From a bacterium (GTDB lineage Bacteria > Hinthialibacterota > Hinthialibacteria > Hinthialibacterales > Hinthialibacteraceae), in contig CAXXMV010000006.1 in the NCBI GenBank assembly GCA_963662285.2, positions 256,001 to 320,000 of the forward strand: a stretch of 64,000 bases of DNA. Reading direction: 5' to 3'. The translations under genes were made by a program, and so were the position numbers. This document shows positions 29,366-55,570 of this stretch, piece after piece; the stretch's first letter is position 1; each line of letters opens with the position of its first letter. The notes under the pieces were generated by a model. The model searched no databases and was not told where the DNA came from. It was given only the letters and a program-made list of their open reading frames with translations.

Positions 29366-29386
29366 TATTGATTTCTTGAACCGTTG

Positions 29387-31333: not shown

Positions 31334-31353
31334 AGCATATTCTCCTTTATAGC

Positions 31354-31393: not shown

Positions 31394-31409
31394 GGGATTT
31401 GATGATGTT

Positions 31410-33092
31410 TTATGCTGCGATTTTTCCTTGAGCACGGGCTTCCTGGCACAACTTATTAACTTTACCAAGACTTATACCCAGTTCTTTGGATATCTCTCTC
31501 TGTGATTTGTCTTCTTGTAGTAATTCAATTATTGTTTCCATTTCACTCGGTCCCGCCTCTTTACGTGTCCATAAAATGGCGTTATCAACAACTGACATTT
31601 GGGCTTCAAATGGAACAATGTCATCCCCATGAAGATGCCGTGCTTTATCAAAATGGATTTCAAATCGGCATCCTTCTTCGGCTATATAGTCCGGAGGGTT
31701 ACGGAGGGATATGACTGTATCTAAGACATCTTCACGCTTTGATGTACCACGCTGATTTCCCGCTTTCCCCGCATGATGAACCATTAACATTGCGATTCCC
31801 TTGCGGCGTAAAGACAGAATCCACTCCTGAATAGGAGCCCAACTTTCTGCATCATTCTCAGCCCCTCGTCGGAAGAGAGTGCTCAAGTTATCGAGTATCA
31901 ATAGATTAATGCCCGCCAAGTTGTTTTCTATGACACGCTGACCTTCAGGAGAGGCTAAATCGGGGATACCGCATTCAAACATATCCGATGAGAGAATTTG
32001 AAGATAATCTCTGGACGGTGGTTCTTTCTCGAAACCCTTAACAATCAGTGCCAGACGCTTCTGTAACACAGATGCTGGCATTTCACCATCCACGAGCAAG
32101 ACCCGATGAGGTTTCTTCACCTGCCAGCCTAAGAATTCATTTCCGGAAGCAATTGCGTATGCCATGGTGTCGCATAAAAAAGTTTTTCCACGGCCTCTTG
32201 GACCGTAAATCATGGCCAAACCCTTTTCTTGCAGCCATGGATCTAAAATGCTTTTGATATCTGGAAATTGAATCTGCAAAAAGTCTGCGATATTACAAGG
32301 CTTAATAATCGTCCGTGAATGATAAAGAGGTGTAGCAGTGGCTATTTCAATGAGTTTTTCAGCTGTCCCGCCTATGTCAAACCAATCACTCACATCTCCT
32401 TTTTCCAGCAGATTTGGCAAAGAGAGGATTTTTATGCTTTTTGCGATTCCTGAAAGTGATGAGGCTATCAATTCGGCGTGCTTCTTACCCGAAGGATCAT
32501 TGTCCGGCAAGATACAAATATCTTTGTTCCTGAAATATCCGTTATATTCCTTTTCCCACTTACCGGCGCCGCCAGCATTGCATGTTGCAGTTAAGTCGTG
32601 GGATTGTAGCCTCAGTACATCCTTTTCACCTTCAGGGATGAATACCGGTTTATCGGGATCTGATGATATCAATTCAGGTAATTGATAGAGAGGTTTATTG
32701 GTTCCCTGAGTGTTCCATATCCATCCACTCTTCCCGTCAGGGCGGCGCTGGCGGAAATCTTTTGGTTCTCTTCTAACTACTTGGAATACCAGTTCACCCG
32801 CGCTGTCTCGATAATCGTATATTTCTTTAATAACCGGAGCGGGAGTATTTGGAAAAAGATCCGATTGCTGGATCACAAGAGACCCGCAAATCTGGTTAAG
32901 ATCACAGCCCGCATGACATTTCAAAAGTATATTTCCGCTTTCTTTGCTTATCCCTATTGATAAACTTTCCGTTTGATCGTCATGAGAGAGGCAGTAACCA
33001 CTCCATTGATTGTCGGATACCCAATGGGCCTTAGTTTTCTCTACGATAATATCAAGAGTTTGTTTATTGTATTTTTTCATATTTTTCCTCAT
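31410..33092 (-). CDS. Primase-helicase: Zn finger + TOPRIM + RecA-like AAA_25 helicase + C-terminal HTH
   Basis: CLSH..CHAGC, PEGEKD, DND, KGDVSDW, Walker A GPRGRGKT, DGEM, LILDNL, VHHAGK..QRGTS, SQREISKELGIS. Confidence 0.9.
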   Translation of the reverse strand: MRKNMKKYNKQTLDIIVEKTKAHWVSDNQWSGYCLSHDDQTESLSIGISKESGNILLKCHAGCDLNQICGSLVIQQSDLFPNTPAPVIKEIYDYRDSAGELVFQVVRREPKDFRQRRPDGKSGWIWNTQGTNKPLYQLPELISSDPDKPVFIPEGEKDVLRLQSHDLTATCNAGGAGKWEKEYNGYFRNKDICILPDNDPSGKKHAELIASSLSGIAKSIKILSLPNLLEKGDVSDWFDIGGTAEKLIEIATATPLYHSRTIIKPCNIADFLQIQFPDIKSILDPWLQEKGLAMIYGPRGRGKTFLCDTMAYAIASGNEFLGWQVKKPHRVLLVDGEMPASVLQKRLALIVKGFEKEPPSRDYLQILSSDMFECGIPDLASPEGQRVIENNLAGINLLILDNLSTLFRRGAENDAESWAPIQEWILSLRRKGIAMLMVHHAGKAGNQRGTSKREDVLDTVISLRNPPDYIAEEGCRFEIHFDKARHLHGDDIVPFEAQMSVVDNAILWTRKEAGPSEMETIIELLQEDKSQREISKELGISLGKVNKLCQEARAQGKIAA

Positions 33093-34019: not shown

Positions 34020-35876
34020 GACGCACCAGTAAAAAGTCCTATTCGTGATTTATCCCGAAATTCAATTTCCTCATCCACGGTGGAGCATGTAAGTCAGGCT
34101 TGATGAAGAACCGGATTGTAAATGTATGCTTTATCAGAATCCAGAGTGATTGATACATCGAAAATGGCGAAAAACGGGCGTTTTTACGCTCTCGCCGCCT
34201 GAAAGATGTTCCAGCCCAGCACTTTTAACGTCACCGCCAGGCGCACTCTTGCCAGCCCTCTCACTCTCAAGCGCCCTATTCCCAACTTTCGTTTCAGTTT
34301 CGCGTTTACCGCTTCGATTCCCGAACGCATCCGGTATTTCTCCCGGAACTCTTTCGACTCCTCCGACACCCGCCGTTGCGCTAATCGCAATTGCTTCGGG
34401 GTATATTCCAACTTATGATCATCACTCAAGCCCACGCAGCAATAGTCCCGATGATCGCACGCTTCACAAGTCGCCGGATCAAAATAGATTTTCAATTTAT
34501 CGTTTTTCCCTCTGCGGATTTCGCACGGGGCTTCTCCGCCGGGACACTTACATATTTCACCCGTTTCTTCATCCTGCCAAAAATCATCCAGGATCAGCAT
34601 GCTCTCTTTACTTTTCGGTTTACCCAAGGTGGGAGCGATTAAGTCAATCCCTGCCGCCGCCGCTTTTTGTACATTGTCATCACTGCCATATGAACTGTCG
34701 GCCAACAATTCGTCTGGAGCGCAACCGCGTTTTTTCATATCTTCAATGGCAGGTTGCAACGCATCGCTGTCGCTGCAATTGGCCGATTCAACCTCAATGT
34801 AAGTAATTAAATTCGGTTGTGTTGGTTCGCCTTCGTCCTTGGCATCCTGATGTGTTTCTACCAACTGCACTTGATAGCCCTCTCCCTTGTGGCCGCTATA
34901 TCCCGCATCGGGATCGGAAGGATTTTGCAGACTGTCGGCTGAAACATTTTTGGTTTCTTTGAGTTCAACCTTCGCGTCATCCGCCTCGCCGCTTACATCG
35001 CATTGTTCGTTCAGCACACGTTGCAACAGACCGAAAACGCCCATGCCGCGCACCTTGCGGTGGGTGCGAAAAGTTTCCACCAACACTAATAAATCTGCCG
35101 CCGCCTGCTCTAACGCCGCCTTGGATTCTGAAGGTTTGACCTGGGCGAAATAACCGTTTTTCTCTCCCAGATAACGCTCGACCAGTTCGCCGTCAATTTT
35201 ACTTTTTAATATCCGGGAATGTTCGCGACGCATGACTTTCAAAAATTTCTCAATGGTTCTTTGGAACAAACCCAAGCGGTTCAAGCGCTGCATATCGGAA
35301 CGAATGTGGGTAGAATCCAAACGCTGTTTGTTAGTAGGGATGTTAAATTGTCTGAGCAGATTGTCAGTCAGCAATTGAAAAAGAATTACATCAATTTTAT
35401 GATTTACCATCAACAAACGATAGGCGCGTAATGTTCGTTCACATACATATTTCGTTTCATCACCTTCCGAGCGAAGGTTTAAGGCGAAATGCCATTCGAT
35501 GTTGAATGCAAATTGGCGAATAGTCTCATCATCAGTGAGATCGAACATGTGTTGTAAAATCAAAACACTGAGAACAGTCCGTAATTCTTTGGTAGGACGT
35601 CCCATAGTCTCATGAAAATATTTCTTGATCTCATCTACAGGGATTTTGTGAAATAAGTCATCTCTGAATAACAGGGCCCAACCACCTCGAAGAAGGTCTT
35701 TCCGTTTGTCGCCCAGAAAATAAAATGGATCAATCAAATAGTCTTGTTGGGGGGAATCGATGCGTCTCATAATTCGACCTTACACGCTGTATTTACACAA
35801 GTTAAGTATAGCGCAATATGATAGTTCAGTCAAGAAAAAACTGCCTTTTTAACCGCTGACTTTTTGCCGGAGCGGC
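34020..35876 (-). mobile_element. Complete insertion sequence (IS1182/IS5-like DDE), 1857 bp
   Basis: TIRs GACGCACCAGTAAAAAGTC / GCCGCTCCGGCAAAAAGTC (15/19); 6-bp TSD ATATCT at 34014-34019 and 35877-35882. Confidence 0.9.
34184..35770 (-). CDS. DDE transposase (DUF772 N-terminus, IS1182-like)
   Basis: MGRPT, RLDSTHI, SDPDAGY, LLADSSYGS, C..C....C, YRMRSGIEAVNA.LKR..G..RLRVRG. Confidence 0.93.
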   Translation of the reverse strand: MRRIDSPQQDYLIDPFYFLGDKRKDLLRGGWALLFRDDLFHKIPVDEIKKYFHETMGRPTKELRTVLSVLILQHMFDLTDDETIRQFAFNIEWHFALNLRSEGDETKYVCERTLRAYRLLMVNHKIDVILFQLLTDNLLRQFNIPTNKQRLDSTHIRSDMQRLNRLGLFQRTIEKFLKVMRREHSRILKSKIDGELVERYLGEKNGYFAQVKPSESKAALEQAAADLLVLVETFRTHRKVRGMGVFGLLQRVLNEQCDVSGEADDAKVELKETKNVSADSLQNPSDPDAGYSGHKGEGYQVQLVETHQDAKDEGEPTQPNLITYIEVESANCSDSDALQPAIEDMKKRGCAPDELLADSSYGSDDNVQKAAAAGIDLIAPTLGKPKSKESMLILDDFWQDEETGEICKCPGGEAPCEIRRGKNDKLKIYFDPATCEACDHRDYCCVGLSDDHKLEYTPKQLRLAQRRVSEESKEFREKYRMRSGIEAVNAKLKRKLGIGRLRVRGLARVRLAVTLKVLGWNIFQAARA

Positions 35877-36336: not shown

Positions 36337-38574
36337 TCAGCAGGCGTATGGTTCATCGTTTTCTTTCATATTCTTTTTCGCCCATGAAGCCATAGTTTGT
36401 CGTTTCATATGATTTCCCGTTTTTTTCTTGTAAAGATCAGCAGCTTTCTGTGGATTTTTATTTGCACTTATCCAGCACTCTTTCCTGATATTATTCTCTG
36501 TATCAGACAAAGAGCGTGGACGGCCACGCTTTTTACTATCAGGATTATCAAACACATTGGGATTAAGCAATAACATGGCTGCCATAACTGTTGTCGCTTC
36601 TGGGATTATCTCTCTAGATTCAGGTAGTATATTACGGACATATCTCCCATCAATTTCCTGCATATTATCAATCTCCATCTGATCCTTGAGCGCCTCTATG
36701 ATTTTCAGACTAGCACGAATATTACTGTTCTTTAATTCTACCTCTCCCAACAACGCAAGGGCATAAGGGTGGATTGAGATAGATTTATTTTTGATAAATT
36801 CATATGGAATTCTTAAACGATCCCATCCTCTATCTCGTAGCGGGGGGACGACTATAGTGCTGTATGGATTTAATCGGTTAATTAAATCAGGAAGGAACGT
36901 TGTGTGATCTTCTGCATTTAACAATTCTTCTTTAGTTTTTGTTGTAGCAAAAACAACTTTAACATTTATCTTGTCCGGTTTTGTTGCACCAATCTTCATA
37001 ACTTCCATTTTATCCACGTCATTAACTGCGCGGAGTAACATACCTTGGACATGTAAAGATAGTAAGTGAAATTCATCGAGGAACAAAACTCCTTTGTCTG
37101 CTGCTTGAAAAAAACCGCCTGTAGTCTCGTTAGCACTGTTATGTGAACCTTCTTCATAACCGAAAAGCTGAGATACTGCCAATGTCTCAGTAAATGTTTT
37201 ACAATTCACCATTACAAACGGAGTTTCGGGATAGTGAATTTCATGGATTGCTTCAGCGACAAATTCTTTACCTGTGCCTGATTCACCAGATACTAATACA
37301 AGTTCTTTGTCTTTACTTCGTTTCAACGTAGATTTCATTAATCGATGTATTATATCTGATTCACCTAACCATTTTTTGAAGCAATCATCTGTTTCTTTGA
37401 TTTTTTCAATCTCTTTGTTTGATTCCATAACTTTTTTAGACTTTTCATATTGTCTGATTAAACTATTTGTCTCATTTTTATATAATTTTTCCTGGTGTTG
37501 TGAGTATTGTTTGTTGTTCTTTGGATTATATATTACTTCTTTAATAATGTTTTCGGCTGACTTACATTCTCCAATCTTTAACAACAAAAAACTTTTTCTA
37601 TTTTTTAATGCATACAAATAAAAAAGCATTGCTTCGTTCCACGTTAATTCAGGCTCAGTTTGAATGTGCACTCCATGCATCTTGAGAATTTCTATCTTTT
37701 CTTGAGGTAAAGGTATCTTTGCTTTAGTCAGGTTTATGGATTCCTTAAATGCATCAAAAAGTGGATTTGTTTCTTGTGCTACATAATCGACAGATCTATT
37801 TAATAGATACTTACATTGTTCCATTTTGAAATTACAATAAGCAATATCAGTTTGAATGTCGATGATAATATCATGTCTGGACTTTTTAGCCTCTTCTTCT
37901 TTAGAAATTAAAGTAACATTGGATAAATCACTAATATAACAACGATGAATTGGCATTCGCTCTTGTTTCTCATTCTCTAAGAATATCAATATTTGTTTGC
38001 CTTCTTCATATGAATATGGGATAACAGAATTTGTATTAAAATCAAATGATAACCATTCTTTAGAGAGTTTAATTATTTTGTTCGATAATTCATGATGATT
38101 AATATCACTAACAATACAACGTAGAATTTCTTTTTTATCAGATTTAATAAAAAGACGGAATCTATTATTATATTTGCTTAGAAGAAAGATTTTGCATCTA
38201 TACGGATGTTTATTTTTTAGGGGGTCTTTGTTAGTTATGAATTCGCGAAAAACATGGTAGATAATATTATCATAGTGAAATATTTGATTTGCATCTTTTG
38301 AACGAGAATCTATCAGCAGGCGCTCCTCAAAAAAATTCTCATCAGGTAGAAAACGACTATGAATATTATCATAAAGGAGTTCTTGATCCTTTGTTTCCAA
38401 TAAAGACCATGCTTGCTTTTTTGATTCTACTAGTATTTTTCCATTTTGGGTTGTGGGATTTTTTTCATATACTGCTGGGGGATATTCATTACTTCGCTCA
38501 AATACGATTACACATTCTTTATCCTTGATATTTGGACTATTAAGGTTCTTTGGTAGAACTAATTTCATTATCAA
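36337..38574 (-). CDS. sigma54-interaction-type AAA+ transcriptional regulator with degenerate GAFTGA loop
   Basis: GESGTGKE, FVMVNC, LFGYEEGSHNSA, FLDEF, VPPLRDR; C-terminal KRGRPR plus HTH-like helices. Confidence 0.85.
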   Translation of the reverse strand: MIMKLVLPKNLNSPNIKDKECVIVFERSNEYPPAVYEKNPTTQNGKILVESKKQAWSLLETKDQELLYDNIHSRFLPDENFFEERLLIDSRSKDANQIFHYDNIIYHVFREFITNKDPLKNKHPYRCKIFLLSKYNNRFRLFIKSDKKEILRCIVSDINHHELSNKIIKLSKEWLSFDFNTNSVIPYSYEEGKQILIFLENEKQERMPIHRCYISDLSNVTLISKEEEAKKSRHDIIIDIQTDIAYCNFKMEQCKYLLNRSVDYVAQETNPLFDAFKESINLTKAKIPLPQEKIEILKMHGVHIQTEPELTWNEAMLFYLYALKNRKSFLLLKIGECKSAENIIKEVIYNPKNNKQYSQHQEKLYKNETNSLIRQYEKSKKVMESNKEIEKIKETDDCFKKWLGESDIIHRLMKSTLKRSKDKELVLVSGESGTGKEFVAEAIHEIHYPETPFVMVNCKTFTETLAVSQLFGYEEGSHNSANETTGGFFQAADKGVLFLDEFHLLSLHVQGMLLRAVNDVDKMEVMKIGATKPDKINVKVVFATTKTKEELLNAEDHTTFLPDLINRLNPYSTIVVPPLRDRGWDRLRIPYEFIKNKSISIHPYALALLGEVELKNSNIRASLKIIEALKDQMEIDNMQEIDGRYVRNILPESREIIPEATTVMAAMLLLNPNVFDNPDSKKRGRPRSLSDTENNIRKECWISANKNPQKAADLYKKKTGNHMKRQTMASWAKKNMKENDEPYAC

Positions 38575-39268: not shown

Positions 39269-42200
39269 ATGCTTATGAACAAAATCAGTATTACACCCAA
39301 GGACTGTCTACGCCAAAATGGCCCTTATCAACCAGTCGACAGAGATGATTACATCAATCACTTAGAACAAAGTAAGCCTCAGTTGCATTCTGGCGATACC
39401 GCGATTTATATCAAAAGAGAAATCCTAATAGACAATGATCCGGCTTATTTTCTTTATATGGATATTGATGGCGAGGGTAATAACGAGCGTGAGAAAATTA
39501 AGAGCGCAATCAGCCAGGCGTGTATGGTCACGAGAATTTTGAAAAAAATAGCTGTATACGGCAATTGTATGTATATCGCAACTGGTGGAACAGGATTCAG
39601 AGTTGTTTCTAATCTGGTCGTCAGCAAAGAATATTATGATGCGTACATTAACTTTCTAGAAGCAGAGATGAGTTTTTTGGATTTCAAACCCATCCGTGAC
39701 ATAAAACAGCCGCATCAGTTATTCGCTTATCGAGGAAACATTAACCAAACCTCAAAGCCGCCAGTAGATCGTCACTCAATGATTGTTAACCCAAGCCGTA
39801 TTCTAGATAATACTTTTACGGTTGACGATTATTTACGGGAGACTAACAGTAATCCTGATCCAGTCGATTATATCTTTTATTTAGAAACATTTTTGCGGTT
39901 TATAAGATTGAATACAACTCACGGAAATCTTCTTAACACACTTAATCAATACCTTTCGCCCTCATCAAAATTCAATTTTCATCTGACCGATCTTACCTTT
40001 ATCCATAAATATCAAAAATCAATGGCGTTAGAAGAGATGTCTGAATTACTCACAGAGAATGATATTAACCACAAGATCGAAAATCGTGGGAGTCGAATGG
40101 CTATATCTTTTAAAAACATTGAATGTCCTGTTTGTGGAAAAAGAACGGTCAACGCATGGGCTTATCCTCCCCATTACACGTTGCGTTGCCATGGCGGCAA
40201 TTGTCCGGCGAATCAGGGTATGCCGTTCCATGAATGGTCAAAAATCGATTTACAGATATCCAATCATGCAGGCCAATGGAGTTCACCGCTTTGGATGAAT
40301 CCTACAGATTACGTCGATATGGCTGTGGCCCAGAATGCTATCACTGACGAGTTAAATAAGGCCGCTGACAGTATCATATCAGCGACGCCGGGATCAGGGA
40401 AAACTTATCTGGCATGTAAATATCTTGCGCAGATATCAGAATCCAAACTGGTACTTTATAGTTGCCGCAACCGAGACCAAAAAGAAGAAGCCTATCAGCA
40501 ATACATAAGTATGAATCCAATCCTGCCTGGTCATCTGCTCAGTTCCCGTGATGAATTATGCTCACAGAAAGACAAACTCAAGAGTGTAGCCAATCGGGGG
40601 TATCCACCGGCTCAATACGTATGCAACTCGTGTCCTGATAGAGATGGTTGCCAGTATTATCAAGAGCGTAGCAACATTAAAGCGGGCGTCTACTTTTGCA
40701 CCCACGCAATGTTGCCGTATCTGAAGAAACAATTCAAAGATGTGGATCTGGTTATATTGGATGAAAATCTCCAGGAAGGTCTCTTGAACAAATATACATG
40801 CCGTATGACAGATATGCAAAAGTTACTTGGAGTGTTATCGAATAAATGTTTAGCGACGGTTACCGCAATTATCGATTTGGCCAATGAGATCGTGAATCAC
40901 TATTTCAAATCAGGCTCCCAGTATACCAAACTTTTGCTGGGGGACGATATCAAGATGAATTCAAGTGAAGTTAAGCCGGATACCATTCTGAATATATTGG
41001 CTAAGTCATTCAATGAGACTGTAGATGAAACCAAAGATCGAATCAAACAGGTCATTAAGCAACTGTCAGCATCAACGCTGTTTCGTAAAAATATCGATTA
41101 CAAAACAAAATACTGGCTTAAAGGATTAGTTGAAGATGGCATTTTTTCATATTTTCAGGTTGGCGAACAGGGGGCTGCATTTTCATATAAGAGCATATCG
41201 ACATTCCCATTTACTGGCGCTACGGTCAAAGTTTTGGACGCAACCGCCGTCACTCAGGTCGTGAACCGATTATTAGCCAGAACAATTGTACCAACTACCA
41301 TCCATGTTAAGTGGGAGGGTGAGCGCATTCATTTCAAAAGAAGCGCCAGCAGAGTCAGTATGCGGGGAATGACGGATAAAGAGTTGAAAGCCTTGCTAAC
41401 AAAAATGATTGCAACAATATCAAGTCAAAAAGTAATGGTGCTGACTTATGATTTCATGAGAACGAAAATAATGGAGATGTGCAGCGCCATTGATCCAAGT
41501 AAAGAGTATGTTGGGTTTTATTACCACGGCCCAAGAGGGATTAACGAGTTCGAATCATGCAGTGCTGTTATGGCAATTGGCTTACCCTATGAGAATCCCA
41601 ATGAGTCGATACAGGATTCTTTGATACTGCTGGATTCAGACGAAGCAGAAGATTTATCATGTTACTGGACTGAAATGCGCATGGCAAGTGAGTTGTATCA
41701 ATCCATTCATCGCATACGTCCAATTCGCACAAATAATCCAGAAATTGTATTGGCGTCAAAGATATGGCCAAAATGTTTAGGTCAACCAACAAACGTTATT
41801 GATCAGTCAAAAAGAATGAATCGGGTAGAATCCTGTGTGCAGCGTATCAAGTCAATCATTGATAAAGTCGGCTTCTTTAACCAGGACATTGGGTTTGCTC
41901 TGAATATGTATGTGAAGACAAAAGTAGCGCAATACAATAAGTTTCGTAGTAAAGTACTTGGATTTGTTGAAGATACAACATGGTGCAAGGTTAATTCCGA
42001 TGCAGTCCATGGTAAGATAATCAGGTCTTCATTCTGTGCTGATGTAAATATAAATGTTCTGTACATGATGGATATAGACAAAAGGTTAATCATCCCTATA
42101 TATAATACTAAAAGGGATGATTACCCCTTTACTAATGTGTTACCAGACTTGAAAAACATTATCTCCAGTCATAACAATGATACCACAATAACCCTGACGT

Positions 42201-43813
42201 CTAATCAATGGTCTTCCCTATTATTAACTGTTCAAACTGATTATCCAACTTTTGATTTATTTGAAGTGAACCTGTCTCATTATGGAAACCAGAAAATTAA
42301 AGGTGTTGGACTCAAACATCGCGTCATCCAGTTTTACACAGTCTTAGCAGCATCAAAAATTATAAAAACGTTCATCCCGGATAAATACAGTCTGCTTCAA
42401 CCGTCCTCATTTGAATTACCATCAATCCCGGACAATTGTTTTCTTGCTTACTACCCGGATAGAAAAAAAGACTCCAATCAATATACATCCAATACCATGC
42501 CCTGCTCTCATACAATGGACGGTGTTCAAGATGATATTAAAACCAAGGAGATCGTATTAACCAATGATTCATGGCCACTGATTGATTCACTTAACCACAA
42601 CGCGCAGCTGCATCAACTACAATTCCATGACATAACATTGATCGAGCGTATCATTCAAAACAAAAAATATCGTCCAAAGATAACCTGGAAATTACTTTGC
42701 GATGTATACAGTCTGCCATTCCATAAGCTGCCATCATCCGACATATATCAACTCTTGCCAATTTATGAGAAGCAATTAGACCAGATTCAAAAACAGGGGT
42801 TACAAAAGATCGTTAACCTGGAAAAACAGGCAACCCGCGTATTAAGCAAGATCGATCATCACGGGTTGACTATTGATGCTGATAAAATCCCTGATGATAC
42901 AAAGCAAACAACCATTGTGGGTATCAAGAAAGCCCTGCAAACAAAGAATGGAGTGACCAAGTACTTTTATCGAAGCAAGGTGATTGGTGCTCATACAGGA
43001 CGCATACAGACTCCTATTTCAAGTTTGCTAAAAAAACCTGAGATTCGTGCAATGATCAAAGCGCCAAAGGGATACAAATTGATTGAAGCCGACTACAAAG
43101 CGTTTGAACCTCGTATTCTCATGGGGTTAGCGAATGATGAAAGAGGCATTGAATTATTCAATAATGGCAAAGATTTATACAGAGAATTGGCAGCAATGAT
43201 GGGAGTTGCAACGGATCAATTGAGTTTGTATCGATCTGTATTCAAAACGGTGGTTAATGCCATTCATAACGGAGGCAACGAATATACTATCCGTAATATT
43301 CTCAGAGCAAACTATCCTGACCTTGAAGCGCAAGCCCAACAAATTTACGACGTGTATTTTCAAATGTTCGCCAATATCCGACCTTGGTTTATTTCAACGA
43401 TTTCTCAAGCAAGGTCATCTTGTGAGATTCGTACTCACATGGGGCGACGGTTACTTGTTGATGAAGCAACCAGAGATGGAACGATTGTTAACTTCCCGAT
43501 TCAAGGTAATGCTTCAGATATTTTCAAATTGGCGCTGATTGAACTGGATAAGCAACTTGATGAATCGAATGCCCGTATAATCCACACTCTGCATGATGCA
43601 ATTCTGTTGGAAGTGAGATCTGATCTGGTATATGAAACAGCTCGCATAGTCCGTACTACCATGAACAATGCTTTTGCAGAGATAATTTCCAATATTAAGT
43701 CTGATGTTGAAATTATATGTGGTGATGACTGGGGGCATTGTACAACGCTGACAACTCCATCCTTAACAGACCATCTTCTTCCTTATGTAACTCAACTCAA
43801 GATTAGTGCGTAA
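39269..43813 (+). CDS. Multidomain replicase: AEP-like primase + Zn finger + Fe-S SF2 helicase + family A polymerase
   Basis: YMDIDG / TGGTGFRV (AEP-like); CPVC..CHGGNC; TPGSGKT, C..CNSCP....C.Y, ILDE, QSIHRIR; TGRI, ADYKAFEPR, NFPIQGNASD, LHDAIL; CAGGAG RBS. Confidence 0.85.
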   Translation: MLMNKISITPKDCLRQNGPYQPVDRDDYINHLEQSKPQLHSGDTAIYIKREILIDNDPAYFLYMDIDGEGNNEREKIKSAISQACMVTRILKKIAVYGNCMYIATGGTGFRVVSNLVVSKEYYDAYINFLEAEMSFLDFKPIRDIKQPHQLFAYRGNINQTSKPPVDRHSMIVNPSRILDNTFTVDDYLRETNSNPDPVDYIFYLETFLRFIRLNTTHGNLLNTLNQYLSPSSKFNFHLTDLTFIHKYQKSMALEEMSELLTENDINHKIENRGSRMAISFKNIECPVCGKRTVNAWAYPPHYTLRCHGGNCPANQGMPFHEWSKIDLQISNHAGQWSSPLWMNPTDYVDMAVAQNAITDELNKAADSIISATPGSGKTYLACKYLAQISESKLVLYSCRNRDQKEEAYQQYISMNPILPGHLLSSRDELCSQKDKLKSVANRGYPPAQYVCNSCPDRDGCQYYQERSNIKAGVYFCTHAMLPYLKKQFKDVDLVILDENLQEGLLNKYTCRMTDMQKLLGVLSNKCLATVTAIIDLANEIVNHYFKSGSQYTKLLLGDDIKMNSSEVKPDTILNILAKSFNETVDETKDRIKQVIKQLSASTLFRKNIDYKTKYWLKGLVEDGIFSYFQVGEQGAAFSYKSISTFPFTGATVKVLDATAVTQVVNRLLARTIVPTTIHVKWEGERIHFKRSASRVSMRGMTDKELKALLTKMIATISSQKVMVLTYDFMRTKIMEMCSAIDPSKEYVGFYYHGPRGINEFESCSAVMAIGLPYENPNESIQDSLILLDSDEAEDLSCYWTEMRMASELYQSIHRIRPIRTNNPEIVLASKIWPKCLGQPTNVIDQSKRMNRVESCVQRIKSIIDKVGFFNQDIGFALNMYVKTKVAQYNKFRSKVLGFVEDTTWCKVNSDAVHGKIIRSSFCADVNINVLYMMDIDKRLIIPIYNTKRDDYPFTNVLPDLKNIISSHNNDTTITLTSNQWSSLLLTVQTDYPTFDLFEVNLSHYGNQKIKGVGLKHRVIQFYTVLAASKIIKTFIPDKYSLLQPSSFELPSIPDNCFLAYYPDRKKDSNQYTSNTMPCSHTMDGVQDDIKTKEIVLTNDSWPLIDSLNHNAQLHQLQFHDITLIERIIQNKKYRPKITWKLLCDVYSLPFHKLPSSDIYQLLPIYEKQLDQIQKQGLQKIVNLEKQATRVLSKIDHHGLTIDADKIPDDTKQTTIVGIKKALQTKNGVTKYFYRSKVIGAHTGRIQTPISSLLKKPEIRAMIKAPKGYKLIEADYKAFEPRILMGLANDERGIELFNNGKDLYRELAAMMGVATDQLSLYRSVFKTVVNAIHNGGNEYTIRNILRANYPDLEAQAQQIYDVYFQMFANIRPWFISTISQARSSCEIRTHMGRRLLVDEATRDGTIVNFPIQGNASDIFKLALIELDKQLDESNARIIHTLHDAILLEVRSDLVYETARIVRTTMNNAFAEIISNIKSDVEIICGDDWGHCTTLTTPSLTDHLLPYVTQLKISA

Positions 43814-45357: not shown

Positions 45358-45891
45358 ATGAATAAAGAATCAGATAGTACTTTACTTAATCTAAGCGATA
45401 GTACATCAAATGCGAATGATCAAATTATTTTCTACGAAAGCCATTGTTCATATAATAACAATGATAATTCAATTGAAAGGAGTGACTTGATAACTTATCG
45501 AGAAGAATTAGCGAATGTTGATGATTTCTATCAAAAATTGAAGGAAAGAATGACAATTTCTTCTGTTGTAATCCCAAATGGAAAATATACCGTATCGGTT
45601 GTTGCCATGAAACTCAAAAAAACTACTGAGGGATATTTACAATTAGTGTGGACGCTTAAGATCATCGGAAAATTGGAAGAATTAGTGATAGAGCATAAAA
45701 ACAATATAGTTGTTACTTATAAACCCTTAAAACGGCTGATAAAGGATCTCGCAATATTTGGTGTTTCAATAAATAATATTACTGAATTGAATGATCCGAA
45801 ATTCTATAAACAATTTATTGGAAGAAAACTAGAAATAAAAACCAAACAAAAAATTGTAAGTTACAGCACTAATTTCTTGAAAATTCTGTAA
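45358..45891 (+). CDS. DUF669-like phage protein (putative OB-fold ssDNA-binding)
   Basis: IPNGKYTVSV..MKLKKTTEGYLQLVWTLKII...LKRLIKDLAIFG....EL......FIGRKLEIK. Confidence 0.6.
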   Translation: MNKESDSTLLNLSDSTSNANDQIIFYESHCSYNNNDNSIERSDLITYREELANVDDFYQKLKERMTISSVVIPNGKYTVSVVAMKLKKTTEGYLQLVWTLKIIGKLEELVIEHKNNIVVTYKPLKRLIKDLAIFGVSINNITELNDPKFYKQFIGRKLEIKTKQKIVSYSTNFLKIL

Positions 45892-46830
45892 TAATTGACA
45901 ACAAAAATTCTGTGGATCGAGGCATCGAAAGGAGAATAATGTAAGACGATGCGCAAAGTTCAAATTGAAGAAGGCCAGAGTCGTTTTTATTGAAATAGTT
46001 CTGGTTTTTTTCAACTTTGATATTTCAAATATATTCTCATGCATTTATTCTGTTTGCAGCCAATGGAAAACCCACTTGTTGACCTGTGGGTTTATGCGAC
46101 AATAGTATTGAACAGCATCAGGAACCTTACTACGGGCTTGTATCGTTGCACAGAGGGCGGTGTGGATTCGTTCGCCACAGGCATTACGACAGCGTAAAAA
46201 AAATGGAATTTCAACTTCATGATCCTCTTGTCGGCCAAAAGTGTTTCGTAGTCTTCAGATAAGAGTCACTCCTGCCAATCGTGACGACAAGATAAAATCT
46301 TTTAAAAAGAGAGGATCGCGGCTTGAATCACTTTTATAACGGCTCCTAAGATGACTATTGATTGGGGGAGTAAGATATGGTATAAAGTTAATATCGTCAA
46401 GTTCTTATAGGTGGTCGGATGACATTTGACAGATACAGATGAATTCACCTTGTGTATTCATAAACAGCATCTGTCTATTTTTTCAATATTGTTAATCCAT
46501 TTCAATTGCAATTCATCATAATCTATGTTACCTTTATGTTTGAAAGACATGATAAGTCTCTCTAGATAAATCCTTTAGAGTAATTCTGTCAAATAAAAAG
46601 ATTGTTGAAATGGAATTTCATGGAGATGGTGAATACAACCAATACATCAAGAATAAATGGTCAATTGCATACCTGCCCAATTCTAATAGATGAGTTCAAT
46701 TATAGGTTCAAAGTATCCTAAACTAATAGAAATTTGGTCACACATTTATTGCTCAGTTAAAGGCAGAGGGATTAATGGATTCCTATCTTCTGGAATTACT
46801 CATAAGTCCGTCAAGTCGCAAGGAGGGAAG

Positions 46831-47490
46831 ATGTTATTTAGATTAAACAAACGAAGCAAATGCTCTATGAAAACTCTAGAAGCATTGTTCCGTGACTTGC
46901 GCAACCAGAGTGTTAAAGGTCTTCTGTCACAACAAACCGATATGCTTCGAACCTATATGAAGCATGTTGATGCTACAGACGTAGCAATGCAGATGCCAAC
47001 GGGAAGTGGAAAAACCTTAGTCGGGCTTCTTATTGCCGATAACAACACTGACGAAAATGCTGGTCCAGATCCATGGTGGGTTCTTGGAGAAGATAAGAGA
47101 ATCGTATTTGAAGATTATACTGACTGTAAAGAAGATGCAGATATCTCTGCAAGAAAAGTTCGACAAGCAACTGGACATCCTACTTTGTTAAATCAACAAG
47201 AGGCATATCAAATTATCTTATTCCATCCAATCATATTGTCACCTGCTCGAAGTCTAAGTAAAAGTGCTAGACCACTTTCGTCAGAAATATATTACCGGGA
47301 GAAAGACGATTTTACAAATGGGCACAGGATGCAATTGCAGTTGTTCGAGAACTCTGAAGAACATTCCCTGGTCAAGGTGATGTGGAATGACGCTCAGTAG
47401 CTAAAGAATCATATACTCAGAACAAGATTGATCCGGAGGGCATATTAGCAAAAGCCATACAAACAGAACTCTCCTCTCTGCTGCCTGATT
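46831..47490 (+). pseudogene. Internally deleted, frameshifted DEAD/DEAH helicase remnant
   Basis: Walker A MPTGSGKTLVGLLIA joined directly to a C-terminal PDPWW..FED segment with no Walker B; tail continues in another frame with stops (WAQDAIAVVREL*RTFPGQGDVE*R). Confidence 0.7.
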
Positions 47491-47537: not shown

Positions 47538-50500
47538 GTGATGGACGTATTTGAATTGCACAAAGGCTTAATTGCTGATTACGCTGCATATACTAAGAGT
47601 TTTATTCGAATTGCAGATAAACGAATCAGTGATTCAGTAGACCAGGAAATACGTGGAGGCTTGTTATGGCCTGAACCACTTCTTCAATTAAATCCTTCGT
47701 TTGAACCAGGGGCAAATATTGATGACTTGATTAAGGAGGAAATCCTCCATGAAGACTGCGGGAAGATTTTCCGAATTAAAAAAGACGAAAATGATTTCGG
47801 AATTCCTTTGAGGCTTCATCGTCACCAAGATACGGCAATTCGAATCGCTTCAAGAGATGAACCATACGTTTTAACGACAGGAACGGGATCGGGGAAAAGC
47901 CTGTCTTATATAATTCCTGCAGTTGATTACATTCTTAAAACCGGATCAGGAAAAGGAATCATAGCAATCGTAGTCTATCCTATGAATGCACTGGCTAACA
48001 GTCAGCGCGAAGAACTCGATAAGTTTTTGAGTCGTGGTTTCGATGCTGATTCTATTCCAGTGACTTATGCGCGATATACAGGTCAAGAAGGAGAGCAGGA
48101 ACGCGAACGTATTCTTCAGCATCCACCAGACATCCTACTCACCAACTATGTGATGCTAGAACTCATCCTCACGCGCATTGAAGAACGAAAACTTGTAGAA
48201 CACGCTGGGAATGTTCGATTTCTTGTTTTTGATGAGTTGCATACCTATCGAGGGCGTCAGGGCGCTGACGTTGCTATGTTAATCAGACGTTGCCGAGAAT
48301 CATTTCAGAGTAAATCAATGCATTGTGTTGGAACCTCAGCGACAATGGCATCTACTGGTTCATCATTAGAACAAGCCCAGATTGTCGCAGAGATTTCTTC
48401 AAAAATTTTCGGTGAATTAGTACCTGTACAAAATGTAATCGGCGAAACATTAAGACGAACGACACAGGAATTCAATTTTTCTGATGAGTCCATAATATCT
48501 TCACTTCGTAATACAATGTTACTGCAAACAATACCAACGACACAATATGAGGATTTTCAAAATCTTCCGTTAGCGTCATGGATCGAAGAAACATTTGGTC
48601 TATGTCGAGAGCAAGATACAAATAAACTAGTTCGACAAACTCCTCAGCCTGTCAGAGGAGAAGAAGGGGCATCATCCCACTTAGCGGAACTTACGGGGAC
48701 AGAGACAACGTTATGTGAAAAAGCGATTCAGAAATATCTAGACGCAGGGAGCCATTGTCGCCATCCTGAAACAGATTTACCAGTCTTTGCTTTCCGCCTT
48801 CACCAATTTATTAGTCGTGGAGATACGGTCTGGGCATCACTGGAGCCTGAAGACAACCGTATTATTACCTTAAAAGCACAACAATATGTTCCAGGTGATC
48901 GTAATAAAATTCTTCTTCCATTGGTATTCTGCAGACACTGTGGTCAACCATACTATCGAGTTGATCGTCCTGCCAGGGGACAAGAAGGACCAATTATTCC
49001 CCGCGAAGAATATGCAATAAGTGTTTCAGATGATCTTGAATCTGGTTATCTCTACATCTCAGATGATCACCCATGGACCGGTGAAGCCGATGATGTACTA
49101 GACCGAATCCCTGAAGAATGGATTGAGATTCATCGTGGCGAGAGACGAATCAAGAGAAATCAACCAGTCCCGGAAGTAATGAGAATTGGAACAAATGGTG
49201 AAGAAGACGCACATGGATTAGTCACAGCTTTTGTTAAAGCACCTTTTCGCTTTTGTCTGAATCCGGCTTGTCGTGTAACTTATAACGCACGTCAAAGATC
49301 CGATGTAACTAAACTTGCAACAATAGGTGTTGATGGCAGGAGCACAGCAACAACGATTCTTGCCTTATCAACAATACTTAAATTGCGCATAGATGAATCT
49401 TTAGAGCCTACAGCAAGAAAACTACTAAGTTTTACAGATAATCGCCAAGATGCCTCTCTGCAAGCAGGCCATTTCAACGATTTTGTTGAAGTTGGGCTGA
49501 TTCGTTCCGCACTTTATCGAGCGATGAGTAAGATGGGGCCAAAAGGGCTCAAATATGACGAATTAGTACAGCATGTTGAACAAGCAATTAATCTCCCTAC
49601 TTATCTCTATGCAAATGATTCCGAACTACGAGGACCAGCATTGGAAGAAACACGAAGAGCATTACGCTCAGTTCTTTCATACTATGTTTACAGAGACCTT
49701 CAACGAGGTTGGCGAGTTACATCACCGAACTTAGAGCAATGTGGCCTTCTCGAATTTGAATATCTTGGAATTGATGATCTAGTAAACGATCAACAGTATT
49801 GGCAAGAAAAAGAAGCGCACCCAATGCTTGTTGCCGCGACTTCTGAACAGCGAAAAAATATTATTCGAATATTACTTGATCATATACGTAGAAGTCTTGT
49901 AGTCAAAGAAGATGCGTTGAACTCAAATTATCAAGAACGGATATGCGAACAAAGCAGACAACGTTTATGTGAACCTTGGGTCATTGAGGATTCGCGTGAC
50001 ATGGTTCAATCTGGTGTTGCTTGGCCACGTGGACGAATTGATCGAGAACGCTCAGAGGATATTTGTATATCTTCTCGAAGCAATTTTGGATTACTGCTTC
50101 GAAAAAGAGGCATCTTACCCGATTTAGGTGATCCTTTGTCACTTGAAACTATAGGGGAAATTATTCCCGATTTATTCCGCTGTTTGAAACCATGGGGTTT
50201 AGTTGAAGAAGTTCGTTCAGCTCCAGATAAAAGTGATGTCCCAGGTTATCAATTACCTGCTTCTATTATGATATGGAAACCTGGAGATGGTACAAATCCA
50301 ATGGTTGATCCTCTCCGAATAATTCAGCAGAGTGAAGTTGAAACAGAGGGAAATAAGTACTTTGTCGAATTTTACAAAACATTTGCGGATATTGGGGCAG
50401 GGCTTGAAGGTCGTGAGCATACGGCACAAGTGCAATCTGATGCACGGTTAGATAGAGAAGAACGTTTCAGGAAGGCAGAACTGCCTATTCTTTTCTGTTC

Positions 50501-52718
50501 TCCAACCATGGAATTAGGTGTTGATATTGCTCAGCTTAATGTTGTCAATATGAGAAACGTGCCCCCAACACCAGCAAACTACGCTCAACGCAGTGGTAGG
50601 GCCGGTCGAAGTGGACAACCTGCTCTTGTTTATACCTATTGTTCTGGATTTAGCCCGCACGATCAGTATTATTTTCGAAATCCTGAGCGAATGGTATCAG
50701 GAGCTGTTACTGCACCACGTCTTGATTTATTGAATCGAGATCTACTAGAAGCTCACATCCATGGTATTTGGCTTTCTGAGGTCTCGCTGAACTTAGGTTC
50801 AACACTTGCAGATATTTTAATTGTTACGGAAGATGATCTCTCTCTTCCTTTAAAAGAACAAGTTCAAGAGAAACTAGCAGATGCCAGTTCAAAACTCAAA
50901 GCAATGCAACGAGCCAAACATCTTATAGATAGTATTGGTCCAGAACTCAATGAGACATCATGGTACAGAGATGATTGGTTGGACGATGTCTTTCGAAGGC
51001 TGCAACAACGATTTGATGATGCATGCAACCGTTGGCGTAGTTTGTACCGAGCAGCCGTACAACAGCGGCAATTGCAAAATCGAATCATCGGTGACCATTC
51101 ACGACAGCAGGCGGATCGTGATCGAGCAAAGAGACTTCGCGCACAAGCAGAATCTCAAATAAGTTTGTTAACAAATCCTCAAAACGCCCGAGAGGGAGAT
51201 TTCTATAGTTATCGCTATTTTGCCAGTGAAGGTTTCTTGCCAGGATATAACTTTCCTCGATTACCTCTATCTGCTTTTATTCCCGCTCGTCGTGGTAGGC
51301 GTGGTAGGGACGAATATTTATCACGACCTCGATTCTTAGCCATTGCAGAATTTGGACCACGTGCGATGGTATATCATGAAGGATCGCGGTATCGAATCAA
51401 CAAAGTCAACCTCGCATTTGATGAGGAAACCCAAGAATTAACACAATTCGCAATGAAGGTTTGCTCTTTATGTGGGTATGGGCATTTTGTTGCGAATGGA
51501 CCAGGACCAGATAATTGCGAGAGTTGCGGGAAAGCATTATTGCCAACGGATGAAATACGTGAGATGGTACGTTTGCAAAATGTTACAGCAAAACGGGCAG
51601 ATAGAATAACATCGGAGGAGGAGGAACGGCAACGAATTGGTTATGAAGTTGTAAGTACATTTGAGTTTTCAAAAATAAATGGAGAAGTTGATTTTCGTCG
51701 TGCTGAAGTAACAACAGGCGGGCAAAGGATCGCCACAATGCGTTATGGCGATGCAGCAACGATATGGCGAATCAATCTAGGTTGGCGAAAGAGGCGACAT
51801 CAATCAGAACATGGTTTTTTGCTTGATGTAGAACGAGGATATTGGGCAACAAATCGAGATGCAGATGATGCTGATCAAGAAGATCCAATGTCAGGACGTG
51901 TTAGAAGAGTGGTTCCCTATGTCCAGGATAGTCGTAATGCCATGACCTTTGAACTTGAGGGCAAACAAGACCTTAAAGTAATGGCGACTCTTCAGGCAGC
52001 ATTAAAACAGGGAATTCAACTACTCTACCAACTTGAGCCAAATGAACTTGCTGTAGATCCTCTCCCTAATACCGATAATCGTAATCAACTCTTTTTTTAT
52101 GAAGCATCAGAAGGTGGCGCTGGTGTTCTTCGTCTGATTGCAGAAGAACCTCAGGCTATTTCTAATATTGCGAAAGCGGCGCTTGCTATTTGTCATTTCA
52201 ATCCTGAGACTGGTGAAGACCTTGCTACGGATGCCTGCGCAGCTGCGTGTTATGACTGTCTGTTAGAATATGGTAATCAAATGGATCACCGTAACATTGA
52301 CAGACAGTTAGTCCTTCCACTTTTACAAGCACTAACCACTTCTACAACGGCAATTTCAGGTTCGCGACGTAGTCGAGTGGATCACCTGGATGAATTGATG
52401 CGCCTTTGTGACTCAGAATTAGAGAGAAAGTGGCTTAAGCGTGTTCATGAATCACAACTTAGACTTCCCACACACGCCCAATACCTTATTTCATCATGTT
52501 CTACTCGACCTGACTTTTTCTACGCGGATGCGAATGCGACTGTGTATATCGACGGTCCAATTCATGATGAGCCAGATGAAAAGATAAATGATGAACAAAT
52601 CACAGGGCGGCTTATTGATGCAGGATACTTAGTAATCCGGTTTCATCATGCCACTGATTGGAACAAGATATTTGATGACTATCGCGATATATTTGGCCAA
52701 AGAAAGGAAACCGTATGA
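47538..52718 (+). CDS. DEAD/DEAH helicase with DUF1998 and C-terminal DUF559/Vsr-like nuclease (DrmA+DrmB-like fusion)
   Basis: TGTGSGKS, YPMNALANSQ, DELH, SPTMELGVD, QRSGRAGR; EASEGGAG, C.AACYDCL..Y.NQ..H; SELE...PDFFY...IDGPIH. Confidence 0.9.
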   Translation: MMDVFELHKGLIADYAAYTKSFIRIADKRISDSVDQEIRGGLLWPEPLLQLNPSFEPGANIDDLIKEEILHEDCGKIFRIKKDENDFGIPLRLHRHQDTAIRIASRDEPYVLTTGTGSGKSLSYIIPAVDYILKTGSGKGIIAIVVYPMNALANSQREELDKFLSRGFDADSIPVTYARYTGQEGEQERERILQHPPDILLTNYVMLELILTRIEERKLVEHAGNVRFLVFDELHTYRGRQGADVAMLIRRCRESFQSKSMHCVGTSATMASTGSSLEQAQIVAEISSKIFGELVPVQNVIGETLRRTTQEFNFSDESIISSLRNTMLLQTIPTTQYEDFQNLPLASWIEETFGLCREQDTNKLVRQTPQPVRGEEGASSHLAELTGTETTLCEKAIQKYLDAGSHCRHPETDLPVFAFRLHQFISRGDTVWASLEPEDNRIITLKAQQYVPGDRNKILLPLVFCRHCGQPYYRVDRPARGQEGPIIPREEYAISVSDDLESGYLYISDDHPWTGEADDVLDRIPEEWIEIHRGERRIKRNQPVPEVMRIGTNGEEDAHGLVTAFVKAPFRFCLNPACRVTYNARQRSDVTKLATIGVDGRSTATTILALSTILKLRIDESLEPTARKLLSFTDNRQDASLQAGHFNDFVEVGLIRSALYRAMSKMGPKGLKYDELVQHVEQAINLPTYLYANDSELRGPALEETRRALRSVLSYYVYRDLQRGWRVTSPNLEQCGLLEFEYLGIDDLVNDQQYWQEKEAHPMLVAATSEQRKNIIRILLDHIRRSLVVKEDALNSNYQERICEQSRQRLCEPWVIEDSRDMVQSGVAWPRGRIDRERSEDICISSRSNFGLLLRKRGILPDLGDPLSLETIGEIIPDLFRCLKPWGLVEEVRSAPDKSDVPGYQLPASIMIWKPGDGTNPMVDPLRIIQQSEVETEGNKYFVEFYKTFADIGAGLEGREHTAQVQSDARLDREERFRKAELPILFCSPTMELGVDIAQLNVVNMRNVPPTPANYAQRSGRAGRSGQPALVYTYCSGFSPHDQYYFRNPERMVSGAVTAPRLDLLNRDLLEAHIHGIWLSEVSLNLGSTLADILIVTEDDLSLPLKEQVQEKLADASSKLKAMQRAKHLIDSIGPELNETSWYRDDWLDDVFRRLQQRFDDACNRWRSLYRAAVQQRQLQNRIIGDHSRQQADRDRAKRLRAQAESQISLLTNPQNAREGDFYSYRYFASEGFLPGYNFPRLPLSAFIPARRGRRGRDEYLSRPRFLAIAEFGPRAMVYHEGSRYRINKVNLAFDEETQELTQFAMKVCSLCGYGHFVANGPGPDNCESCGKALLPTDEIREMVRLQNVTAKRADRITSEEEERQRIGYEVVSTFEFSKINGEVDFRRAEVTTGGQRIATMRYGDAATIWRINLGWRKRRHQSEHGFLLDVERGYWATNRDADDADQEDPMSGRVRRVVPYVQDSRNAMTFELEGKQDLKVMATLQAALKQGIQLLYQLEPNELAVDPLPNTDNRNQLFFYEASEGGAGVLRLIAEEPQAISNIAKAALAICHFNPETGEDLATDACAAACYDCLLEYGNQMDHRNIDRQLVLPLLQALTTSTTAISGSRRSRVDHLDELMRLCDSELERKWLKRVHESQLRLPTHAQYLISSCSTRPDFFYADANATVYIDGPIHDEPDEKINDEQITGRLIDAGYLVIRFHHATDWNKIFDDYRDIFGQRKETV

Positions 52719-55552: not shown

Positions 55553-55570
55553 TTTCTGGAAGGATCGGCG

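Follow-up and report, generated by a model that had tools for sequence, protein, structure and literature searches.

Results

A fused polymerase gene in a genomic island

The stretch of DNA analysed here (the window, 64,000 nucleotides of contig CAXXMV010000006.1 from a member of the Hinthialibacterota) contains an island with two polymerase-bearing parts. The island starts with a tRNA-Arg gene (27827-27901) and an integrase, followed by the gene for P0002, a 648-residue protein with full exonuclease and polymerase Pfam domains, and by an AAA_25/HTH gene (27827-33092 overall). The subject of this work, P0001, is encoded further downstream by a single open reading frame (ORF). In P0001 a primase-like N-terminus, a zinc finger, a helicase, a linker domain, a dead exonuclease fold and a family A DNA polymerase (PolA) domain follow one another. 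A preliminary description of positions 42800-43740, which correspond to residues 1178-1491 and thus to the last fifth of the ORF, had pointed to a polymerase with most of its thumb missing and an altered O-helix. It proposed a low-fidelity or specialised enzyme that relies on the fused helicase and possibly accepts modified bases.

The polymerase domain has a short thumb and a non-aromatic O-helix

DNA_pol_A (PF00476) is the sole Pfam match of P0001 above the cut-off (131.9 bits against 34.3) and covers residues 1239-1489, equivalent to profile positions 114-380 of 381. Between GLTID (residues 1199-1203, nucleotides 42863-42877) and TGR (residues 1243-1245, nucleotides 42995-43003) there are 39 residues, whereas the neighbouring PolA, P0002 (29387-31333, minus strand), has 119 between GIGFD and SGR. 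Motif B, RSVFKTVVNAIHNG, was aligned by HMMER to RRAAKTINFGVLYG of Taq polymerase, so that in P0001 Asn stands for both O-helix aromatics, Phe at B3 and Tyr at B4. Motif C reads HDA. P0001 thus departs from family A in its motif B aromatics (N1330 and N1334) and in the His-Asp-Glu of motif C. An exonuclease domain was detected by Pfam in P0002 but not in P0001, and in the family alignment described below the ExoII acid is lost and the ExoIII segment deleted throughout, while the fold itself is retained. Both catalytic Asp residues (D1275 and D1443) and the steric-gate Glu (E1280) are present. The preliminary description had read all of these features correctly, to the residue.

An AlphaFold2 model of residues 1040-1514, calculated from a 34-row family alignment, has a mean predicted local distance difference test score (pLDDT) of 87.4 and a predicted template modelling score of 0.88. 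It superposes on KlenTaq with Z 33.5 and a root mean square deviation (rmsd) of 2.7 Å over 408 of 538 residues (model 15-454 on KlenTaq 301-832), and the domain is predicted to have the Klenow-type palm and fingers fold. Model residues 15-150 fit the N-terminal domain of KlenTaq, starting at its residue 301; the stretch upstream of the polymerase is therefore shaped like a 3'-5' exonuclease domain. The thumb is modelled as one 8-residue helix (175-182) and a β-hairpin (184-193) at pLDDT 83-94, whereas Pol I has long thumb helices. The highest-ranking Foldseek matches of this model were the Plasmodium apicoplast polymerase (apPOL), KlenTaq and Pol theta.

Two other assignments were considered for the domain. 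A kinship with DpoZ, a PolA that incorporates aminoadenine and whose relatives the preliminary description had named for an alignment, was rejected: the NCBIfam model phage_DpoZ_1 has a cut-off of 500 and gives 58.3 bits. An RNA polymerase-like activity, considered in view of the short thumb and the motif C without Glu, is disfavoured; the steric-gate Glu is kept in all rows shown but P0059.

The changes recur in a family of fused proteins

Only two fused relatives came out of a word-index search, both ∼30% identical along the whole length. An exhaustive HMMER search of 1.84 billion representatives with residues 1101-1514 yielded 15,637 matches at E <= 1e-3 and 26 at E <= 1e-30. The top matches are proteins of 1236-1639 residues with a C-terminal polymerase, or fragments of such proteins; one fragment, P0047, is 81% identical to P0001 and also has HDA. 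Besides P0004 and P0005, 14 full-length proteins are collinear with P0001 at ∼30% identity, as those two are. We defined the family as 34 rows (P0001, P0004, P0005, P0047-P0075, P0078 and P0185) and compared it with the other 119 listed matches.

At the position of Tyr766 the family has Asn in 27 rows, Tyr in five, Phe in one and a gap in one. The others have an aromatic residue in 115 rows (Tyr 103, Phe 12), Asn in two and a gap in two; the two with Asn are P0083, evidently a family fragment, and P0129. The Phe762 position is Leu in 20 family rows, Asn in eight, Val in three, and Ile, Ser or a gap in one each, against Phe in 94, Leu in 13, Tyr in 10 and a gap in two of the others. The third residue of motif C is Glu in 26 family rows (Ala 4, Gly 2, Ser 2) and in 112 of the others (Ala 3, Ser 3, Gln 1; these seven rows were not inspected). 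The thumb, counted from the D of GxxxD to the T of TGR, measures 37-56 residues in 20 and 78-114 in 10 of the 30 measurable family rows; it measures 104-119 in eight canonical references.

A tree of the polymerase core minus the thumb was calculated for 68 rows (IQ-TREE quick search, LG+G4). It held 33 family rows (those with at least 230 aligned residues, plus P0129) and 35 non-family rows (every fourth with at least 250 aligned residues, plus eight chosen). The family forms one clade of 32 rows (SH-aLRT 99), with P0129 outside. Within it, P0001, P0047, P0055, P0059, P0062, P0063 and P0078 form a subclade (support 95) in which all seven members have thumbs of 37-46 residues, Ala, Ser or Gly in place of the motif C Glu, and Lys two residues past the motif A Asp (in the rest of the family Ser 20, Lys 2, Ala 2); in six of them Asn occupies the Phe position. 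On the tree the motif C Glu is lost once and the thumb state changes at least nine times, where nine is approximate because 28 of the 65 forks are unresolved. Between the sisters P0051 and P0057 (support 99) the difference is one clean deletion of 62 residues in the thumb.

R1245, D1275, R1322, K1326, D1443, the Walker A and B motifs and eight Cys are invariant in the 17 full-length members, which share 26-33% identity. D1275, K1277, R1322, K1326, N1330, Q1412 and D1443 are invariant in the five full-length members of the subclade (26-30% identity). The substitutions are thus not peculiar to one copy: a short thumb and an O-helix without aromatics characterise the family, and decay of a single copy, which would have refuted the earlier reading, is ruled out by their recurrence across the clade. 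A 4.5-kb open frame that carries these features, and relatives at ∼30% identity that repeat them, make a pattern beyond chance. With the metal-binding Asp residues, the TGR Arg and the motif B Arg and Lys all invariant, the family looks like a specialised polymerase and not a decaying one, as had been proposed.

Desulfosarcina variabilis, D. widdelii, Desulforhopalus singaporensis and Desulfatibacillum alkenivorans carry fused genes on their chromosomes; further ones come from a KSB1 single-cell genome, several metagenome-assembled genomes (MAGs) and metagenome contigs. A single-protein scan of genomes found no close relatives, and the fusion occurs in none of 19 genomes of the same taxonomic family. 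A phage origin was considered and rejected, with no family member in IMG/VR (14 weak PolA-only matches) and none in a phage collection. In one MAG contig (L055:3788-6698) the fused gene is read as two ORFs of 392 and 524 residues with a gap between them, which may reflect a frameshift, a natural split or an assembly error. In D. variabilis (L015:10001-11545) a tblastn family match begins ∼1.5 kb upstream of the intact 1585-residue ORF and suggests a partial duplicate or a remnant of the gene's 5' end.

Helicase and primase-like domains

Residues 1-1039 were modelled with a pLDDT of 81.8. The Foldseek top matches of the helicase are XPD (8rev, E 4.3e-13), DinG and CasDinG, which also give the longest VIA-align alignments (428-473 residues; fold matches Z 17-19.6); against CasDinG 8e2w the helicase gives Z 19.6 and an rmsd of 6.0 Å over 450 aligned residues. 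The Pfam DEAD match at residues 355-499 is below threshold. GxGK378, DE498-499 and Q811/R815/R817 are invariant in the full-length members. With two modelled RecA domains, Walker A and B, motif VI and four Cys, residues 349-848 have the hallmarks of an XPD/DinG-type superfamily 2 (SF2) helicase with a predicted iron-sulphur cluster. The XPD/DinG-like nature of the helicase, the dead exonuclease fold and the subclade-specific change of Ser to Lys in motif A had escaped the preliminary description.

Residues 1-250 have no match in Pfam, PDB sequences or PHROG. In both fold searches with the 1039-residue model the helicase took up the match lists, and residues 1-250 were not searched alone as a fold. 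The ESM Atlas gave an archaeo-eukaryotic primase (AEP) lead, AEP-TOTE, at rank 16 (0.93, 146 shared features). An AEP would have a DxD motif I, a motif II with His and a motif III acid on an RRM-like fold; DIDG is present, but ATGGxGFR has Arg at the place of the motif II His. From these motifs and the order of strands, helix and hairpin in the model, the domain is possibly an AEP; AEP families in which the motif II His is less strictly conserved are described by Kazlauskas et al. (2018).

Table 1. Features of P0001 and the DpdA-like gene in the window
Feature	Position	Strand	Basis
P0001, whole ORF, 1514 residues	39269-43813	+	ORF list with translation
N-terminal domain, primase-like, residues 1-250	39269-40018	+	Invariant DIDG (39461-39472), ATGGxGFR (39578-39601), D167-x-H169-S170
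Zinc-finger-like motif, C286, C289, C307, C312	40124-40204	+	Four Cys invariant in 17 full-length members
SF2 helicase, XPD/DinG-like, residues 349-848	40313-41812	+	Foldseek, VIA-align, invariant columns
Helicase Walker A, TPGSGKT	40385-40405	+	
Helicase DE, residues 498-499	40760-40765	+	
Helicase Cys 431/452/455/461, between Walker A and B	40559-40651	+	Four invariant Cys
Helicase QxxHRxRP	41699-41722	+	
Vestigial 3'-5' exonuclease-like fold without catalytic acids, residues ∼1054-1189	42428-42835	+	KlenTaq superposition
Thumb remnant, GLTID to TGR, 39 residues between	42863-43003	+	Motif spacing, predicted model
Motif A, DYKAFEPR, residues 1275-1282: catalytic D1275, subclade-specific K1277, steric-gate E1280	43091-43114	+	
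Motif B (O-helix), RSVFKTVVNAIHNG, residues 1322-1335: R1322 and K1326 retained; Asn in place of Phe762 (N1330) and of Tyr766 (N1334)	43232-43273	+	
Motif C, HDA, residues 1442-1444: catalytic D1443 kept; A1444 in place of Glu	43592-43600	+	
DpdA-like (TGT-superfamily) gene, X homologue	62078-62857	-	phrog_887, E 6.6e-27 over 225 residues

Mobile setting and neighbouring genes

The host genome (7.29 Mb) has four PolA genes. Most 2-kb bins upstream of 16 kb have a G+C content of 0.45-0.49; it falls to 0.34-0.41 over 36-48 kb, in the bins that hold the fused gene. No second att copy of the tRNA-Arg 3' end lies within the window, and the only repeats flanking the fused gene are short two-copy matches. 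In D. variabilis a tyrosine integrase is encoded near the fused gene, and BLAST finds homologues of it at L018 and L039, two further loci of the family. Homologues of residues 101-896 without PolA occur on two Desulfovibrionales plasmids: a protein of 1102 residues on pDRET01 (E 3e-51) and one of 1131 residues on the 10.5-kb pDCAR2. The latter is encoded by far the largest gene in the 9.1 kb viewed, which has no annotated Rep. These plasmid homologues support a replication role for the primase-like and helicase part, to which PolA would be an addition.

Other genes of the region were noted in passing. The part at 27827-33092 resembles a separate integrated replicative element, and a second PolA similar to P0002 is present as a 691-residue frame on contig C1. 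Between the two polymerase-bearing parts lies a DDE transposase gene (DDE_Tnp_1_6, DUF772; 34184-35770, minus strand). Divergent from the fused gene is a gene for a 745-residue AAA protein of the sigma-54-activator type (36337-38574, minus strand; PADLOC RtcR_PspF2 CARF_AAA_HTH, 5.1e-46). Just downstream, on the plus strand, are genes for a DUF669 protein (45358-45891; Pfam 2.8e-5) and for a 236-residue ORF with only the N-terminal part of a helicase motif (46690-47400; PADLOC PDC-S28, 4e-17).

A defence island (47538-61858) follows downstream. It encodes a 1726-residue DEAD/DUF1998(MZB)/DUF559 helicase whose best PADLOC matches are DruE and DpdJ, a full-length DpdE match (E 5.9e-243), a 1393-residue Eco57I-type methylase, NOV_C and CBS proteins, and an Mrr nuclease.

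A DpdA-like gene often accompanies the fused gene

At other loci of the family the fused gene is directly preceded, on its own strand, by two genes, X2 (∼340-415 residues) and X (∼300 residues). The pair is present at L015, L019 (identical to L039), L036, L040 and L055; L053 has X2 alone. X matches phrog_887, annotated as queuine tRNA-ribosyltransferase (two copies scanned, 3.7e-20 and 2.7e-19). A second TGT-like type occupies the same place at L018 (Pfam TGT 26.3 bits, at the cut-off) and, by homology alone, at L021. Overall, a TGT/DpdA-like gene lies within ∼2.5 kb upstream and on the same strand in seven of the 10 non-redundant loci with enough upstream flank, and the hidden Markov models (HMMs) of both types found none at L016, L053 and L054. 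The match of the D. variabilis X to DUF6610, which Hutinet et al. (2023; PMC10516641) equate with DpdA4, is weak (7e-5) and below the cut-off. X2 matched no family. Radical SAM genes stand beside the fused gene at L016, L017, L018 and L021; in one a B12-binding domain is followed by a methyltransferase, and another has a weak DUF5131 match.

The window has its own copy of X, related by BLAST and HMM to the neighbours at L015, L019, L036, L040 and L055. It lies 18 kb downstream of the fused gene on the opposite strand, with the DruE/DpdJ-like helicase, DpdE, methylase and Mrr genes in between, and its N-terminus is ∼35 residues shorter than those of its homologues. It has no Pfam match. The nearest named cluster in the Atlas (0.94, 209 shared features) has PF23859 DpdA in 29% of its members. 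An insertion-sequence-like ORF of 486 residues, with 68%-identical copies on contigs C1 and C8, separates this copy from a weak X2-like ORF past the window end (window-equivalent 64541-65581, within the region 62984-65581). The X2-like ORF has one BLAST match (1.5e-4) and was not recovered by the X2 HMM. The DpdA module may be broken, and X disrupted, in this island.

Comparison with known systems

P0001 shares with the Pol I large fragment (Klenow, KlenTaq, Bst) the fold, the motif A Asp and steric-gate Glu, TGR, the motif B Arg and Lys and the motif C His-Asp, and with KlenTaq also an exonuclease-shaped domain without activity motifs. It differs in its thumb (39 residues against 104-119), in Asn at the Phe762 and Tyr766 positions, in Ala for E883 and Lys for S707, in its position behind a helicase and in overall sequence (∼22% identity).

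DNA polymerase theta, also among the top structural matches, likewise has an SF2 helicase N-terminal to an exonuclease-dead PolA in one chain; it is eukaryotic, whereas P0001 is bacterial and island-borne. In Pol theta both tyrosines of the O-helix and HDE are retained, and the thumb is full and has inserts. Its helicase is of the HELQ/Hel308 type according to a table of Czernecki et al. (2023), whereas that of P0001 is XPD/DinG-like with four conserved Cys.

Czernecki et al. (2023) sorted PolA into 19 clusters and, in the available text, name the Phe position as the most variable of the conserved ones (F/Y/L). The same text reports AEP fusions only for cluster #8, which keeps the Phe and in which ∼93% of members have the exonuclease. 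This cluster, the 'Hot Spring 1' PolA, resembles P0001 through the apPOL chains, the best Foldseek matches of the polymerase domain (E 2.7e-23, TMq 0.72), and in including N-terminal primase and helicase fusions. P0001 differs in having Asn at B3 and no Pfam match to an exonuclease or Prim-Pol domain, the cluster being compared here by its published description. A canonical fusion of Prim-Pol, exonuclease and PolA, P0137, has NFGLLYG, HDE and a thumb of 106 residues, and Pfam recognises its Prim-Pol and exonuclease domains; like the further AEP-PolA fusions P0087 and P0077 it falls outside the family clade. In the literature we found no prior description of the P0001 family, membership lists of the Czernecki clusters not having been compared.

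Two other replication systems invite comparison. CCPol-MP-Cch2 of staphylococcal SCCmec, as described by Bebel et al. (2020; PMC7581432), includes a PolA of a mobile element with no exonuclease activity, a shortened thumb helix and a helicase partner in replication; unlike P0001, CCPol is a separate small protein without an exonuclease fold, with MP as its partner for priming and the helicase encoded by a separate gene. GP55, the 'four-in-one replicase' of lactococcal phage 1706, is described as combining a helicase, an unusual AEP primase and a DNA polymerase in one chain. Its polymerase belongs to family B and it is a phage protein, whereas the P0001 family is absent from the phage collections searched.

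X resembles the DpdA enzymes (bDpdA, DpdA1-4), which are transglycosylases that exchange guanine in DNA for 7-deazaguanines, in its matches to phrog_887 (1e-19 to 1e-27) and, weakly, to DUF6610. It differs from them in having no Pfam TGT or DpdA match above the cut-off and, for the X alignment, no PDB match; no preQ0 pathway genes were identified beside X. A link between DpdA and a PolA fusion was not found in the literature.

Discussion

The sequences and models define a PolA subfamily of its own, in which the O-helix is non-aromatic, the thumb is dispensable and the architecture of primase-like domain, XPD-like helicase and PolA is fixed. It is often linked to a DpdA-like gene, and its function is one that we infer. 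One subclade, that of P0001, has by its sequences an active site of two carboxylates plus a lysine. On balance we consider it probable, if by no means certain, that residues ∼1190-1493 form a catalytically competent, remodelled family A polymerase which acts as the synthesis module of a single-chain replication protein of integrating elements. Catalysis would be kept, because the set of nucleotide- and metal-binding residues is invariant. The thumb may be dispensable where the fused domains, the helicase among them, hold the DNA, and the lack of proofreading and of two O-helix aromatics would loosen nucleotide selection. Such an enzyme would probably make limited stretches of DNA and extend primers at the element's origin, rather than copy long genomes accurately. 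In the subclade, the change of the third carboxylate to Ala, Ser or Gly together with that of Ser to Lys would amount to a compensated re-wiring of the metal site and not to inactivation.

The preliminary description as a whole is partly supported. Low fidelity is plausible by analogy with the published mutator data for Klenow Y766A/S alone. Reliance on the fused helicase is plausible in that the thumb was lost repeatedly while the order of helicase and PolA stayed fixed, and acceptance of modified bases is plausible in the context of the nearby DpdA-like genes.

Several points weigh against a competent replicase. E883 is listed among the catalytically active residues in a review of Bst polymerase, and Klenow Y766A/S are described as mutators that close poorly on A/T templates (PMC10520511, PMC3715850); the natural combination of Asn, Asn and Ala could therefore be very slow or dead. 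P0062 has SAR for TGR and RDG for HDx, and P0078 has FDIK...T in motif A and YDA. The N-terminal domain, with Arg for the expected motif II His, matches no family or PDB entry. The tree comes from a quick search, and 28 of its 65 forks are unresolved. The fused gene also sits amid defence genes (DpdE, DruE/DpdJ-like), so that a role in a defence or modification system is conceivable.

The damage in P0062 and P0078, the loss of the motif C Glu in all seven subclade members and that of both O-helix aromatics would also suit a polymerase domain that is catalytically dead in the subclade and kept as a DNA-binding or scaffolding module of the primase-helicase; the plasmid homologues indicate that the N-terminal two thirds can stand alone. 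We regard this as decidedly unlikely, because the invariance of D1275, D1443, R1322, K1326, R1245 and Q1412 across the five full-length members would be difficult to account for if the domain bound no nucleotide and did no metal chemistry, and the co-varying K1277 looks compensatory. Single-subunit RNA polymerases, which have the same fold, likewise lack the motif C Glu. It is highly improbable that the PolA domain does the priming, beginning chains de novo like CCPol-MP of SCCmec, while the N-terminal domain has another role. CCPol, a PolA without exonuclease domains, is described as priming when bound to its small partner, and its shortened last thumb helix is likened to T7-type RNA polymerases (PMC7581432); the reduced thumb of P0001, its motif C and the putative primase motif II without the usual His fit such a picture. 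Yet P0001 retains the steric-gate Glu, an MP-like partner was not identified, and CCPol was not among the PDB sequence matches, none of which is listed under that name.

Two further explanations start from the neighbouring genes. The polymerase might be adapted to 7-deazaguanine DNA alongside the DpdA-like transglycosylase, either copying heavily modified templates or incorporating a modified dGTP analogue, with the non-aromatic O-helix and the missing thumb tip giving room for bulky base groups. The frequent TGT/DpdA-like gene upstream, the X homologue in the window's own island with its Atlas cluster, the radical SAM genes and a reported broadening of modified-nucleotide acceptance in Klenow F762A (PMC13369328) all point this way. 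We judge it unlikely. For all known 7-deazaguanine DNA marks, insertion after replication is proposed (Hutinet et al., 2023; PMC10516641), and earlier work reported no inhibition of polymerases by them; any polymerase adaptation would therefore concern the template and not the nucleotide, and an adaptation to modified templates is speculation. Moreover, three of the 10 loci have no detectable TGT-like gene, an adjacent DpdA-like gene was seen at no locus of the window's subclade (L053 has X2 but not X), and the window's X copy is distant, shorter at its N-terminus and beside a multi-copy insertion-like ORF. The stronger claim is that a clade with a remodelled active site (Lys in place of Ser next to the motif A Asp, the third carboxylate and the O-helix aromatics gone, the thumb tip missing) is the dedicated replicase of 7-deazaguanine-marking integrative elements, joining primase, helicase and polymerase to a DpdA module. 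This is distinctly unlikely; if true, no polymerase specialised for deazaguanine DNA would have preceded it, and PolA would have a natural member whose catalytic centre consists of two carboxylates plus a lysine. It is very unlikely that P0001 belongs to a Dpd-like modification or defence system instead of being a replicase, for example in resynthesis around base-exchange sites or in action on invading DNA. The downstream DruE/DpdJ-like helicase, DpdE, methylase, Mrr and DpdA-like genes, the conserved trio of X2, X and fused gene at other loci, and a PADLOC match of residues 1236-1477 to 'RTasPolA' (filed under DRT; 1.4e-29), a label whose meaning was not established, favour such a role. Against it, BLAST found no DpdE or DruE homologues within 10 kb at the other loci, the integrases and plasmid-borne homologues favour replication of mobile DNA, and published accounts of dpd clusters, in their available text, mention no polymerase.

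The family would bear on how PolA works. Y766 and E883 are listed among the conserved residues for substrate binding or catalysis in the Bst review, and a natural clade that drops their equivalents with the rest of the active site under selection offers a ready test of what these residues do. It may also supply polymerases that are less strict about substrate or template; Klenow and Taq variants engineered at the same positions are reported to serve for modified nucleotides. The repeated loss of the thumb in a fixed helicase-polymerase chain would be a natural experiment in which processivity is handed to a fused motor. The DpdA-like link suggests a so far undescribed class of integrative elements, found mainly in sulfate-reducing Desulfobacterota, with their own replicase and a DNA base-exchange enzyme.

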